Below are positions 44,601-50,600 of a DNA stretch of 64,000 nucleotides, piece by piece (positions within the stretch are counted from its first letter, which is position 1; each line of letters begins with the position of its first letter). The stretch lies in assembly GCF_048403405.1 (NCBI RefSeq), contig NZ_CP183129.1, one strand, 5' to 3'. This DNA comes from Escherichia coli (GTDB lineage Bacteria > Pseudomonadota > Gammaproteobacteria > Enterobacterales > Enterobacteriaceae). Position numbers: made by a program.

Positions 44601-47600
44601 ACTGACGGACAATGAGATCCGGTTACTGAACAGTTTAACCATTGAAGATCTGCATTATCTTTCTCAAAGTCCGGTCTCCATTATTACCTGCCAGATCCAC
44701 CGGGAGAATTTACGGTTATTACTGACCCGGGCAAAAGAAGTTCACCGTCAAAATCAGATGATTGAACGCTGTCTGAGACTGGGGGCATCCATCGATTTGC
44801 TGAATCAGTATTTTGGCATGACGTCACTGGAGGTGTCAGCCCGTCGGCGTTTGTCCGGGATCCGGGGAAATGCTGGCCGTTCACAGCGGCTGTCAGATGT
44901 GCAGCAAACGGAATTATGGTATCGCTGGAAAGAGGAGGGCATGCCGGAGCCGGATGATCCGGATTGTCTTCAGATCATGGTGTCCTGTGCCGAAAAAATG
45001 AATGTCTCTCTGACCACGGTATGGAATTCGGTTCAGGAATGGCACCGGGACGGCATACTGAATTCAGCTGACAGGGGGAAATATCATGCCGGATAACAGG
45101 AATATCAGTCATCATCAATCCGCCCGGATATTTCCGGAATGTGTCACGCCTGTTCCGGAGCATATTCAGCGGAAGGCAAACGGGTTATTGCTACGTTATT
45201 TTTCGGGAGAACGACTTTGTAAAAAAGTGAAATGCGGTGGAAAAAAGGGCGGTGTTTACCCGGTATTGAAAATTGATATTGGTGCATTCTGGCGTCTGCT
45301 CAGTATGGACCAGGGGCAAAGCTGGAAGCTGATGAGCCATGAACGTTATAACAAGATGATTAGCCGGTAAGGGCAGAATATTCAACATCATGATCCTCAG
45401 TATATTGAGACTGCCTCTTTACGGTGCGGTATTTTCACCGGAGGAGGCAGCTATAAGTGTATTCAGGCATGAAATTATTTTTGTGTGGGGCATAAGATGC
45501 AATTTCCTCCGGACAGTATTATTCAGTTTTCATTAGAAAAAATGCGGCAGCAACTGCATCACCGGCAACACAGCCAGCCCGGCACGGCACTGCGCAGTGG
45601 ATTGATTTACGCCGGCAATGTTCATGATGCAATCCCCCGGCAATTATTGCTGGAATCCCGACTTTCCCCGGTTGATAAACTGACCTGGATGATGATCCGC
45701 CTTCATGCTCAGCAAAATGAGGGGGCCGTATTTCCGACCTATGATGACTTACAACTCCAGTTAGCCACACCCCACAGCGATAAAGCCTCGCGGGAAACGG
45801 TCAGCAGGGCACTGTTAATGCTGAGGCTGACGGGCTGGCTCAGTTTATGCCATCGGGTCAGGGATAAACGGGGGCGTATCAGAGGAAATATCTATATGTT
45901 ACATGATGAGCCGGTGAATGCATTTGATGCAGAGACATTAGATCCACGCTGGATGGATGTACTGGAAAAAAGTTGTTATCACAAAAATAAGAGTGTGCGG
46001 TGCGTGGCCCGCGCTGCGCTGACTGCCCTGAAAACCGAGCCGTCAATGCGACATCAGCATACCAGAATGCAACTCATTGAGCAGCGGCTTGAAAGTCTTC
46101 AGACACCGGAAGCGCTGGCAGACAGGCAACGCCGGATACTCAATGGGCAGACGGCACAACTTCATCCGGGTAAACATAAAAAAAATCGAGCCCAGTGTAA
46201 AACACCGGATTTGAAAATCGAACTCAGGGAAAAAAATGATGAAAAAAAACCGGGTACGAAAATCGAACTGAGTACACAAACCCAGTCTGATTCAGGGGTA
46301 CGAAAATCGAACTGTTACGTACGTAATACTTTTACACAGAGTGTAAAAAATACGTACGTAGATCAGGGAGAGCAATATTTATCGGGTACTCAGGTGCAGG
46401 GGCTGCATCAGTGGATTGATGAGAATGATCGGCAGATGCTGGAAAAACAGTTACAGGCGTTGCCGGAAGAAGCCGCAATATCGATTGTGCAGCAACTGAC
46501 ACAGGGGGTGAGGACAGGAAGTGTACGTAATCCGGTGGGGTATGCCTTGCAGCTATTAAAGGCAGCCCGTGAAGGGCGATATCACTCCGTTTCCCCAGCA
46601 GAAACGGGGATGAAAAGTGCGTCTTTACAGAAAATGTCAGGTACTCCGGATGTATCACAGCACACGCAAACCAAACCGGAGAGAACGGAGAGAAGTAAGG
46701 CGTCTCAGGGGGGGATGGGTGCCCCTGATATTGCACGTCAGTACCTTCAGCGTTTTCGCCGTACGCTCATAGGGATATCCAATGAGCAATGAAGGCGTAT
46801 TCAATAAATCACCCGTGTTTCCACTGGAAACAGTGCTCAAAACTTAACCGGTGTTTCCACTGGAAACAGTGCTCAAAACTTAACCGGTGTTTCCACTGGA
46901 AACAGTGTTTAAAAATTGGGTTTTTCTTATCCGGGTAGGAAGGTCCGGAACGCGATATTTCGCTTTCCGTAACGAAATCTGCATCATCGAGAGTAAAGAA
47001 TTTAACAAGCTATGGAGCAGTCTGGTTAACGATATGGGCATAGAGATATTTTCGTACATATAATTTCACTCTGATATTTACTTTAAACTGATCTTATTGT
47101 TTTTTGCCCACTTTCTTAATCTTCCATTAGCGTTGGCGTAAGGCGAAGATGTGTTAAATGAGATCATTCTCCCCATCGTCCATTTTGTGTACCATAGTCT
47201 TCCATACAAAATATCATCGGTACGCTCATCAATAAGTTTCACAACTTCATTTTTTACAGCCTGAAGTTCAGCTACTAACAATTCATAACTTAACTCACTG
47301 TAATCTGAGTAAAATTTTTGAGCAAGAAGACTAAGTTGATTCCATTTATAGCCAGTTTCCGGAAAATCGACAGGCAGACCTTTAGCATCAAAAGTGATCC
47401 ACTTTACAACAAGAGCATTCCATCCAAGCAGATATGAAACAAGGTCATGAACACTTATCTTCGTTCCTTTGGCGTGTCCATCCATTGAGTTATCTGAAGT
47501 CATTTCTGGCGGGATTGCGTTGAGGTAACTAATTAATTTACTAAAACTTTTATCAATAGCTAAAAGCAGCTCAGCTTTTGTTTGTGGCACACTCATGAAG

Positions 47601-50600
47601 AATTTCCTCTTATTTAAAATAAGACACCATAAATGCATTGTATGGTGTTTATAAATCAATTAGGTACTGTACTACTCCCCTTACAACAGAGGAAGACCCT
47701 TAACTATTTACTGATGTTTCCGGTGGAAACAATGCTCAAAGGTTAACCTGCATTTCAGTAGGATGACGAGTAACGCTACGTTTTTATAATAAATTATTTT
47801 TTTCAATTTGAATTTATCGTTGGCATAGGGGGTTGACATTTGTACGGTATGTCAATTTCTCAAAGCAAGGGTATTGTTATGGAACAAAATAAACATTCTC
47901 AACAGTTACTTCAGGCTGGCCCTTTAAAGTCAACATTAACACTGAAACTCCATACCAGTTATGCAATCCGGCTATGGGAAGGGCGGGTTGTACCCAACTC
48001 TCAGAATGACGGTGACGAAAAAAAGCGTAAATGGATGATCCCCAGTCTTCCGATGTTTATTTCCCGGGCGGGTCATATTACTGATGATGCAAAGAAGGGA
48101 TACTTATATGCAGAAATGTGGCTGTATCAGCTTGAGCAGGCACTGGAGCAAGGGACTCGGACTATTCAGAAATTACTTTCAGAGGTTGAACAACAATTAG
48201 TTCAGTTACCTGCGGTTGCGGTTATTTCGGATATCTCATCAACATCTCCTGTTGACCTGGCGATATTCAGTAAATCTCCTGTTGGTTATAAATGTGTCTG
48301 GTTACTCGTCGGGGTTGATCAACTTGCTTTGCGTGTATTGCAGGGAGAGCATTATGGTTTTATTTCCCGTCAGCAACGTGACAAGGTCCTTAAATTAGCG
48401 GGCTATCAGGTTCGTCATGTGACAGGGATGGCCGTAAACTACCGGAAATATGAGCTCACCCGTCATAACCTTGATTTAAACAGTGAAACTTATCAACAGG
48501 CTTCCCGTTATTTAGGTGAAATTGATCCGGATATCATTTCAGGAAGAAAACGTGCGTCATTTTTACCGTCTTTAAAAAAATAACGAATGTTATTTATATT
48601 GGGTTAATTATTTAATAATAAGGAGCTGCAATGAAAAAAAGCGGATTGCTTACCTTATGCTTTTCTTTATGGCTTTTGACCGGATGCTCTGCACAGGAAA
48701 TCGCAGAATGGAATCAGAAAATCAGTGACCTGGGGCATCAGGTCAGTCATACCATGAATGGTGGTATGCAGAAACGGGAACAACGGGAGTATGACGTGGT
48801 TATCCCTGTTGATATTGATACAGCCGCAGCCCGTCTGCGCCGTTATTATGGTTTTGAGGATGTGAATGCCAAAATCCGTGCTCTGTGTCAGTCAGGTAAA
48901 GAAAGTGATCAATGGGCCGCCACGGCTATTGCAGAAGAAAGCCGGGGCTGGGAATGGGAAGTGACGCCGGGAAGTTATTATAAAATGGGGGCGGATATGG
49001 GAAAACGTAACCCGCCGGCACATATCGTCATCGAACTGGAAAAAAATGGTTCGGGAACACACATGTATATCACTTACAGCGCTTCGTACAGTGATACCCT
49101 GACTCCGGAGTTTGTTCAGGAAATATTTAAAACCGCGAATGACGTTGCAGCCGGAAAAAGGAGGTAGAACAGGGTAATGAAATTATTTCTGTGCGAAAAG
49201 CCGTCTCAGGCCAAAGATATTGCCCGGGTGATCGGCGCTCATCAGCGGCGGGATAATTTTTTTCAGGGAAATGGCGTTCAGGTCGCCTGGGCAAGAGGTC
49301 ATCTGCTGGAGCAGGCTGAACCGGAGGCTTATGGCGCACAGTTTGCGGCCCCCTGGCGGCAGAGTGCCTTACCCGTTATTCCTGAACAGTGGAAAATGGT
49401 GGTTAAAAAAGACGCGGTTTCGTTGTTTCAGACCATAAAACAGTTGCTCAGTCAGGCGACGGAAGTGGTGATTGCCACGGATGCGGACAGGGAAGGGGAA
49501 GTGATTGCCCGTGAATTACTGGAGGCCTGTCATTACCGGAAAAAGGTACAACGTTTATGGTTGTCTGCACTGGATGAGGCGAGTATCAGGCAGGCATTAA
49601 ATAACCTGTTACCCGGCGAGAAAACGGCCTCTTTATATTCAGCGGGATTAGGGCGGGCCAGAGCAGACTGGCTTATCGGTATGAACATGACGCGTCTGTT
49701 TACCCTCAAAGCCCGGGAACTGGGGTTTGGTGGGATATTGTCGGTCGGACGTGTCCAGACGCCGACACTGGCCCTGATTGTCCGGCGGGAAAGAGAAATT
49801 ACGCACTTTGTTTCCAAACCCTTCTGGCGGGTGACCGCCTCGTTGCAGCATCAGGGGATCATTTTTCAGGCTCACTGGCGACCTGCCTCGCAGTATTGTG
49901 ATGATGAACATCGTTGTATTCACGTTCAGGCCGCTCAGGCCGTAGAGCAACTGTGCCGGCAGGCAGGGAAAGCGACGGTGTGTACAGTGAATGAAACGAA
50001 AGGAAAAGCCTTGCCGCCGTTGCCGTTTGATCTCGGGACACTTCAGCAGGCGGCCTCAAGGCGTTGGGGGTATTCTGCGGATAAAGTGCTTGAAATCGCA
50101 CAAAGTCTGTATGAAAAACATAAGGCCACCACGTATCCCCGGACGGACTGCGGGTATCTGCCGGTGTCCATGCGTGCCGACATACCGGTTGTTTTAGATG
50201 CATTATCACAAAGCGATCCGGCCTTACAGAATGTGCTGGCACAATTGCAGCCGGCGCGAATTTCCCGGGTCTGGAATGATGCAAAAATTACGGCTCACCA
50301 TGCGATTATACCGACCCGGCAGACACCTGATTTGAACGCCATGAATGAGGCTGAACTGAATGTCTATAAACTTATCCGTGCCCATTATCTGGCGCAGTTT
50401 TTGCCGGATCAGGAATGGGATGCAACAGAGGTGTTTTTAGATATAGGCGGACAACAATTTGTTGCCAAAGGGAAAGTCGAAAGAGTGAAGGGCTGGTCTG
50501 TATTATTTGTGAAACATGAAGACGATCCGCCAGTAAAAGAAGAGGCAGAAACCGGGCTGGAAGCCGGAACAGAAACATTGCCGTCCCTTCACGAAGGTGA

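Follow-up and report, generated by a model that had tools for sequence, protein, structure and literature searches.

The subject of this analysis is a 64-kb window of Escherichia coli DNA (64,000 nucleotides of contig NZ_CP183129.1, assembly GCF_048403405.1), which holds an integrative and conjugative element (ICE) of the ICEPm1/SPI-7/pKLC102/ICEclc family. Within this element, a short array of palindromes lies between the genes for an STY4528-family replication-like protein (here Rep) and a PFL_4669-family protein. We find that these palindromes are probably parS-like, bisS-equivalent loading sites for the element's own ParB-family cytidine triphosphatase (CTPase) clamp, an orthologue of the ICEclc protein BisD. 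The argument draws on the anatomy of the array, its conserved place throughout the family, the ParB-like fold and cytidine triphosphate (CTP) motifs of the protein, and a covariation between one protein residue and one base of the palindrome.

A palindromic array follows the STY4528-family gene

Three head-to-tail 36-bp units occupy positions 46811–46914 (Tandem Repeats Finder: period 36, 2.9 copies, 95% matches, score 187), beginning 20 bp past the end of the Rep gene; the ParB gene lies 2.8 kb upstream, beyond three intervening genes. Direct reading of the sequence and a repeat search returned the same units. An earlier sequence-only reading had described three such repeats of about 36 bp, each with GTTTCC-N3-GGAAAC, after a 435-aa gene, and a fourth copy beyond a ClbS-like gene; both descriptions are accurate, the gene being a genuine family member (NF040582) and the fourth palindrome lying at 47715–47731. 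Written in unmodified form, the window site is TGTTTCCACTGGAAACA, and in the tandem copies each arm is really 8 bp long, with one base left at the centre (TGTTTCCA-C-TGGAAACA). A search for the palindrome elsewhere, which the same reading had called for, found the pattern GTTTCCNNNGGAAAC four times in the window, always at the array, against 0.01 expected from shuffles. The features that concern us are as follows.

42332–43981, plus strand: ParB-family protein, BisD orthologue (549 aa, TIGR03764)
42878–42880, plus strand: codon of residue I183, proposed from covariation as reader of base 3
44506–45096, plus strand: DUF2857 protein, orthologue of ICEclc BisC (RefSeq annotation; synteny with ICEclc-type loci)
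45485/45497–46792, plus strand: STY4528-family 'replication protein' (435 aa; NCBIfam NF040582, 'STY4528 family pathogenicity island replication protein', 364 bits)
46182–46348: second repeat set, inside the STY4528 gene, in its linker-coding part
46816–46832, 46852–46868 and 46888–46904: three tandem copies of the perfect palindrome TGTTTCC-ACT-GGAAACA
46909–47706, minus strand: cargo cassette of ~0.8 kb with a ClbS/DfsB-family gene (coding sequence [CDS] 47078–47596, minus)
47707–47756: fourth, diverged unit (palindrome TGTTTCC-GGT-GGAAACA at 47715–47731), on the far side of the ClbS gene and adjoining the PFL_4669 promoter region
47879–48583, plus strand: PFL_4669-family gene (inrR-like), the array's nearest downstream gene

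The element's genes run in the order integrase, ParA, SPI-7-type DnaB, ParB-family protein, a 210-aa open reading frame (ORF), DUF2857 and a ParE-like protein, followed by the STY4528-family gene, the array split by ClbS, PFL_4669, a hypothetical protein, topoisomerase III and an STY4534 'replication protein'. Several human E. coli have chromosomal islands with 100% identity to the window DNA, and so do contigs of Providencia stuartii and Proteus mirabilis. A scan of 37–64 kb found no second, bisS-2-like copy of the palindrome and no other recurrent long palindrome. Rfam, terminator and tRNA scans were empty at the array locus, and an identity of the array as an RNA or terminator was dropped.

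The array keeps its place across the family

Relatives were retrieved with a Rep alignment, giving 80 Enterobacterales loci (cited below by L numbers). In about 74 of the 80, one or more 17-bp palindromes of the form TG-N5-N3-N5-CA lie 100–300 bp past the Rep-like gene and between the STY4528-family and PFL_4669 (inrR-like) genes, the interval that such palindromes also occupy in pKLC102, ICEHin1056, pSGI4 and ICEclc-type elements. The sequence-only reading had tied its proposal to the presence of the repeats in related elements, and there they are, in pKLC102, ICEHin1056 and ICEclc-type elements as in the Enterobacterales.

Relatives have between 1 and 16 copies, many of them just one, and unit periods of 36, 53, 57, 105–108, 118, 132, 158 and 250 bp show no helical phasing. 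For example, a distant element of E. coli 774 (L003) has 6.3 units of 53 bp with TGTTTCC-CGG-GGAAACA, pKLC102 (L004) 15–16 units of 57 bp, mostly TGGTGCC-ACT-GGCACCA, ICEHin1056 (L005) 4.6 units of 36 bp with TGTAAAG-GGG-CTTTACA, and pSGI4 (L006) 11 units of 36 bp. Cargo genes part the Rep gene from the palindromes by 1–4 kb in several relatives (e.g. L031, L061 and L164). One locus with Rep and an array and without ParB (L030) had been considered as a Rep-array unit, and was dropped as a decayed, uninformative island remnant.

Individual arrays can be heterogeneous. At 8238–9110 of the pKLC102 locus, edge units of the types TGATGCG, TGTTTCC, TGTTGCC, TGATTCC and TGTTGCG flank nine TGGTGCC units; mixed arrays likewise occur in L016, L020, L060 and L085, and some edge units are the main site of distant elements, including the TGTTTCC of the window. 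Relaxed reading of inner bases, exchange of units between elements and template-switch 'correction' of quasi-palindromes are possible sources. Annotated 'hypothetical protein' CDSs coincide with the arrays of pSGI4 (8236–8670 of L006) and ICEHin1056 (5956–6147 of L005) and are probably spurious ORFs. Between L003 and the window, ParA is 100%, DnaB 98% and topoisomerase III 95% identical, whereas ParB is 62%, DUF2857 71%, Rep 67% and PFL_4669 51% identical. The backbone is a mosaic in which the ParB-to-inrR block behaves as an exchangeable module, L003 retaining the TGTTTCC half-site despite its 53-bp unit.

ParB residue 183 covaries with base 3 of the half-site

Over its N-terminal 312 residues the window ParB shares 42% identity (E 1e-75) with an ICEclc-type BisD, and it has the BisD-type architecture of ParB N-domain, helix-turn-helix, long linker and C-terminal domain, with a DUF2857 gene downstream. 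The CTP-pocket motifs are intact (G92-N-T-R95 and E134-N-E-V-R138). An AlphaFold2 (AF2) model of the N-domain (predicted local distance difference test score [pLDDT] 86) matches KorB, Noc and ParB in Foldseek (E ~1e-6), and places the helices of the helix-turn-helix at 167–176 and 183–196, residue 183 being the first residue of the second helix. Pfam gave nothing significant for the Rep-like and ParB-like proteins; a PDB sequence search with both gave nothing, and an N-domain profile of ParB gave weak KorB/ParB matches only, ending before the helix-turn-helix.

Helix-turn-helix residues 160–199 (window numbering) were compared with palindromes that had been classified beforehand, the register being counted from the dyad centre. 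Residue 183 and base 3 of the half-site pair as follows.

Residue 183 Q: base 3 A in 10/10 loci
Residue 183 N or D: base 3 C in 16/18 loci
Residue 183 R: base 3 G in 2/2 loci
Residue 183 H, Y, F, A, I, S or K: base 3 T in 39/42 loci

In a mutual information (MI) scan of ~3000 alignment columns from seven proteins (ParB, DUF2857, Rep, PFL_4669, DnaB, ParA and topoisomerase III), the top column for base 3 is ParB-183, with a normalised MI of 0.84 vs 0.63 for the next column. When sister pairs were drawn greedily and without overlap, the base and the residue both changed in 10/11 and both stayed unchanged in 17/19 (Fisher p = 2e-5). For half-site positions 5–7 the global scan yielded no outstanding covarying column; by eye, N185 goes with 'AC' at bases 6–7 in 10/10 main-set loci and Y185 with 'CC' in 5/5. 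One Serratia marcescens pair (L037 and L083) illustrates the pattern: Rep residues 38–160 are identical and DUF2857 is 97% identical, while the palindromes differ (TGCTGCC vs TGTTGAC) and ParB carries N183S and S185N among other differences.

A comparable switch is known from ParB and Noc, where residue 173 is R and reads a guanine in parS, or Q and reads an adenine in NBS; the base that it reads is 6.5 bp away from the dyad (PMC7383237). Base 3 of the window site lies 6 bp from its dyad.

The code was then confronted with a held-out set of eight plasmid-borne loci from seven lineages, retrieved after it had been drawn up. Six of the seven lineages fit, one of them tentatively, and the fitting set includes an alphaproteobacterium (Tistrella).

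Pseudomonas veronii: residue 183 A, half-site TGTTGCG, fits
Tistrella: residue 183 R, half-site CGGTCCC, fits
Ralstonia sp.: residue 183 Q, half-site CTATCCC, fits
Klebsiella: residue 183 Q, half-site TTATGCG, fits
Pantoea: residue 183 Y, half-site TGTTGCA, fits
R. solanacearum: residue 183 Q, half-site CTATGCC, fits, site tentative
Stutzerimonas (two loci): residue 183 N, half-site TGTTGCG, breaks the code

Linkage alone is an unlikely explanation of the covariation, because the pairings make chemical sense and recur in several independent lineages. The Rep gene, physically nearer to the array than the ParB gene, shows no comparable covariation.

Genomes with more than one element often combine different palindromes with different residues at 183–185, as in Serratia marcescens 106R (L039 and L083), Erwinia psidii (L024 and L085), Erwinia oleae (L034, L047 and L050) and Xenorhabdus sp. 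BG5 (L038 and L064); X. hominickii and X. mauleonii are counter-cases that carry an identical site twice. Differing combinations may insulate sister elements from each other.

The array corresponds in position to bisS-1 of ICEclc

BisD of ICEclc is a ParB-like, CTP-dependent clamp of 550 aa with G92NTR95 and ENxxR motifs (PMC12409273; Antar et al., NAR 2025). Two palindromes, bisS-1 and bisS-2 (GAGCTATCCCCnGGGGATAGCTC), serve as its loading sites; it spreads over ~50 kb and, with BisC, activates transfer-competence promoters; focus formation, chromatin immunoprecipitation sequencing and stimulated CTP hydrolysis identified bisS-1 as a loading site (PMC12409273). We obtained ICEclc-type loci by scanning metagenomes for bisS and then mapping the genes, and found the order ParB-like, DUF2857, STY4528, bisS-1, PFL_4669, DUF3158, ssb, bisS-2. 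In L109, three bisS-like palindromes in a 132-bp tandem repeat (2–3 copies) lie between the end of the Rep-like ORF at 6972 and the start of the PFL_4669 ORF at 7420. Because bisS-1 occupies the same interval in the same gene order, comparison of the loci identifies it as the positional homologue of the window array. We found no paper extending bisS beyond ICEclc-type elements.

The two systems thus share an element family, an interval and a gene order (ParB-like, DUF2857/BisC, STY4528/orf96323, site, PFL_4669/inrR), and the orthologous protein retains both G92NTR95 and ENxxR. The pairing of residue 183 with base 3 is also valid for bisS, with Q183 and A3 in CTATCCC-CNG-GGGATAG (centre-based register). 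Their differences lie in the site: bisS is a 23-bp palindrome (11-N1-11, GAGCTATCCCC...) found at two dispersed places, whereas the window has a 17-bp palindrome in a 36-bp tandem array, with binding predicted only, and has no second site after an ssb gene.

Several observations weigh against the palindromes as clamp loading sites. Accumulation of the clamp at its site in vivo and stimulation of CTP hydrolysis have been shown only for ICEclc (PMC12409273), and the window palindrome departs from the ICEclc consensus GAGCTATCCCCnGGGGATAGCTC in both sequence and length (17 vs 23 bp), a difference that follows from the different recognition-helix residue (I183 vs Q183). The residue-base code is not absolute, since N183 is paired with T3 in 2/14 main-set loci and again in the Stutzerimonas lineage; the N185-'AC' pairing is broken in the held-out locus L166. 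Several arrays mix different, individually symmetric palindromes, for which a single fixed specificity offers no explanation. The equivalence of residue 183 with R173 of ParB rests on geometry and motif similarity, the hidden Markov model alignment to 6t1f ending before the helix-turn-helix. Finally, whole-protein identity was tried as a predictor of shared palindromes and discarded: areas under the curve of 0.76–0.86 were obtained for all linked proteins and for the unlinked topoisomerase III alike, so the test was uninformative and per-column analysis was used instead.

An origin of replication is a less likely identity for the array

A different explanation takes the array as iterons of a vegetative origin (oriV), at which the initiator-like STY4528 protein would bind the repeats, melt the nearby A+T-rich stretch and load the element's DnaB in the manner of an iteron plasmid. 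We consider this unlikely, although several points speak for it. Multiple direct repeats (3+1 here, 12 in L002) adjoin a rep-like gene that ends 20 bp before them, a stretch of 78% A+T follows the fourth copy (47770–47825, overlapping the promoter region), and the element encodes DnaB, topoisomerase III and the STY4534 'replication protein'. As many as 30 copies of pKLC102 per chromosome have been reported (PMC7685784), and the same arrays have been published as 'putative' or 'postulated' oriV for PFGI-1 (PMC2647930), ICEHin1056 (PMC2258188) and, as relayed second-hand in PMC7685784, pKLC102. All of these published calls were made by inspection of sequence features only.

Against an origin stands the behaviour of Rep itself. 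No Rep column in the MI scan tracks the palindrome; the best (0.63) lies in the C-terminal tail, and no winged-helix column is among the top ones. L037 and L083 have identical Rep residues 38–160, yet two half-site positions of their palindromes are different, as are ParB residues 183 and 185. A single copy is all that many relatives have, and unit periods are out of helical phase. A relaxed-match scan found no DnaA box in 46793–47878, the sole nearby match being intragenic at 46330. In ICEclc, moreover, the positional homologue is bound by BisD (PMC12409273), and the excised element needs its relaxase and oriT1 for replication (PMC6561031). Although plasmid iterons and the 'putative oriV' of pKLC102, PFGI-1 and ICEHin1056 are likewise direct repeats beside a rep-like gene, and in the latter case the same physical feature, the units of the array differ from iterons in being palindromic, unphased, often single-copy and covarying with ParB rather than Rep.

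The sequence-only reading had called the repeats origin-like or centromere-like. Its centromere-like half gains from the ParB-183 covariation and the homology with bisS-1, and its origin-like half loses ground, no Rep column tracking the palindrome; its wider proposal, that the repeats are sites for a protein of the replication/partition module, is upheld by covariation and positional homology.

Rep has a candidate target within its own gene

Rep is modelled by AF2 (pLDDT 70) as a winged helix at ~48–136, a helical domain, a disordered linker at 220–292 and a small C-terminal helical domain. The linker-coding part contains imperfect GTTCGA-AAA-TCGAAC palindromes at 46208–46224, 46254–46268 and 46298–46312, with CGAAC spacings of 45 and 44 bp, and these are followed at 46330–46348 by a palindrome, TTTTACAC-AGA-GTGTAAAA, which alone in the module matches a relaxed DnaA box. 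The same part of the gene in 75/87 family members has 3–6 CGAAC copies within palindromes of the GTTCGGA-N-TCCGAAC type, at a density of 11.5 per kb vs 0.63 elsewhere in the gene, and across the family a conserved palindrome, either TTCACAC-N3-GTGTGAA or TTTTACAC-AGA-GTGTAAAA, comes after the CGAAC set. Spacings peak sharply at 33, 44, 45 and 54 bp (~11n, in helical phase). Because the commonest, 44, is not a multiple of three, the repeats are a DNA-level feature and not a peptide repeat.

This intragenic set is conserved in sequence across the family, as is the Rep winged helix, and is a better candidate target for Rep than the intergenic array. Origins within initiator genes are known from RepA_N plasmids and from lambda O, and by analogy the intragenic set looks like one. 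It corresponds to the 'first half' of the PFGI-1 oriV and to 'bisS-3' of ICEclc, a third candidate palindrome inside orf96323 that BisD leaves unbound (PMC12409273). The presence of these separate, conserved, ~11n-phased palindromes and a DnaA-box-like motif in the Rep gene itself is a further point against the intergenic array as the oriV.

The two sets could also act together, the ParB clamp binding an array that at the same time joins the intragenic Rep sites, ~500 bp upstream, in a composite origin/partition region. The phased palindromes and DnaA-like box (46182–46348) are indeed close to the array (46811 onwards), the authors of the PFGI-1 study took both sets as one ~1.1-kb oriV (PMC2647930), ParA is encoded in the same module, and parS sites offer an analogy in that they cluster beside origins. 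Yet in several relatives 1–4 kb of cargo genes intervene between the Rep gene and the palindromes, and ClbS splits the array here; we hold such a composite to be improbable, somewhat more so than the simple origin.

That the palindromes serve through structure alone, by forming hairpins or cruciforms when the DNA is single-stranded or supercoiled (for instance in priming or early transcription after conjugative entry) with no sequence-specific dimer, is very improbable: variant units do stay perfectly symmetric (34 compensated vs 60 single changes overall, 12 vs 2 in pKLC102) and the three-unit stretch folds as single-stranded DNA better than shuffles (z = -3.0), but a dimer site predicts symmetry equally, the stems are short (7–8 bp) with no Rfam match or terminator-like tail, and structure gives no reason for a ParB-183 amino-acid/base code or for the binding of double-stranded bisS by BisD (PMC12409273).

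The ClbS cassette lies inside an older array

A relative of the window element in the mouse E. coli M9 (L002) lacks ClbS and has, between the same two genes, an uninterrupted array of 12 units of 36 bp; its Rep DNA is 95.7% identical. Homology with M9 extends as far as the third unit and is lost at ~46908; it returns at ~47707 and covers the last unit as well as the PFL_4669 promoter region, the fourth window unit aligning to the terminal unit of the M9 array. Since the ClbS-less array is unbroken and the window flanks match its first and last units, alignment indicates that the cassette was inserted into, or replaced the middle of, an older and longer array, of which the three tandem units are the left remnant. 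The sequence-only reading had suspected such an insertion between copies, and rightly so on this comparison.

A ClbS segment 90% identical to window positions 46969–47707 is found next to ISEc53 in a prophage of other E. coli. In the 60 bp between the third unit and this prophage-shared part, a palindrome, CGGAACGCGA-TATT-TCGCTTTCCG, at 46946–46969 may be the ClbS terminator or a remnant of the junction. The otherwise identical Proteus locus L008 has 2+1 copies, and copy number is thus polymorphic.

A model for loading at the array

By analogy with ICEclc, binding of the window site, CTP-dependent clamping and sliding, and the regulatory outcome would proceed as follows. A ParB dimer would bind one palindrome via its helix-turn-helix, residue 183 reading base 3 of each half-site, and CTP would close the clamp round the DNA, as for BisD. 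Clamps would then slide mainly toward the PFL_4669/inrR-like operon and beyond and, with the DUF2857 (BisC-like) partner, switch on transfer genes; an additional role with ParA, in positioning the excised element, is possible. The tandem array would merely multiply loading sites. One copy seems enough, because many relatives have just one, and an array built in this way could shrink, grow or take up cargo such as ClbS without being destroyed, the fourth copy retaining a loading site on the promoter side of ClbS. Varied unit periods without helical phasing are what independent loading sites lead one to expect.

The word 'centromere' is right for the biochemistry of such a site and may not be right for its function, because what BisD is known to do is activate transfer genes at long range, and partition may or may not be a second task. 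We also entertain, as a tentative extension, two neighbouring cis systems, one an origin inside the initiator gene and the other a set of fast-diversifying clamp sites reprogrammed by one or two recognition-helix residues (183 and 185). Such reprogramming might stop co-resident sister ICEs from cross-activating or competing, and the window array would represent one allele in a natural code of ParB-DNA recognition that can be read.

Known systems resemble the array to differing degrees. The sopC site of plasmid F consists of 12 units of 43 bp, each with a 16-bp palindrome bound by SopB. Like the window array it is a set of tandem identical units with one palindrome each for a ParB-family protein, with ParA encoded nearby, and L002 also has 12 units; unlike sopC, the window array lies 2.8 kb from the ParB gene, its copies vary from 1 to 16 among relatives, and its partition role is putative. 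With parS/ParB and NBS/Noc (PMC7383237, Jalal et al. 2020) it shares a palindrome read by a ParB-fold helix-turn-helix, outer bases TGTT...AACA that resemble TGTTTCAC|GTGAAACA when the quoted sequences are compared, and a switch from R-G to Q-A, ~6–6.5 bp from the dyad, that is made by one residue where the recognition helix begins. It differs from canonical parS (16 bp, tGTTNCACGTGAAACa, even centre), with only the outer TGTT(T)C / G(A)AACA in common, in its 17 bp and odd centre, in a clamp with a long C-terminal activation domain, and in sites that diversify far more. KorB of RK2, a ParB-fold CTPase, loads at OB palindromes and regulates promoters with a partner protein, as far as it is cited in PMC12409273. 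KorB is the top structural match of the window ParB N-domain model, but represses over short distances from dispersed sites, whereas BisD activates over ~50 kb.

Other features of the element

A promoter-like site lies at 47763–47790, ahead of the PFL_4669 gene. An inverted repeat, TTGACAT-N9-ATGTCAA, at 47833–47855, 24 bp upstream of the PFL_4669 start, is kept with one mismatch in the M9 element and may be a promoter or operator, possibly a BisC-type site; the BisC sites of ICEclc are described as a weak inverted repeat, 12 bp apart. Two more tandem repeats occur: one of 48 bp x 2.5 (51807–51926) separates topoisomerase III from STY4534, and a perfect one of 12 bp x 5.8 (53366–53435, AAAAAGGTATCG) lies at the 3' end of the Rpn-family gene.

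The integrase gene (minus strand) stands directly beside parA (region 37782–39357), and a strong palindrome, AAAAACGGACCTCC-GT-GGAGGTCCGTTT, lies near them at 39208–39237. A tRNA scan found no tRNA gene anywhere in the window. To the left of the integrase, E. coli M24 carries a uropathogenic E. coli (UPEC) island mosaic (iha, sat, iuc, pap and many insertion sequences), and the element may accordingly be a remnant embedded in a larger island.

Significance for the family

The array as a mis-labelled family feature, and BisD/bisS for ICEclc, were already known. What is new here is the link between array and bisS, the tandem 17-bp variant, the residue-base code and the ClbS insertion, and not a new kind of system. 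The array appears tolerant of cargo insertion. The family (SPI-7, PAPI-1/pKLC102, ICEHin1056, ICEPm1 and ICEclc) includes major carriers of virulence and resistance genes, and its arrays have been annotated for twenty years as putative replication origins; if they are clamp loading sites, those annotations should change. If true, this reading would bring enterobacterial pathogens under the mechanism of BisD, which was described in 2025 and for a single Pseudomonas element, and a code of one residue and one base would yield direct, inexpensive predictions, both of binding and for the engineering of orthogonal ParB/site pairs.

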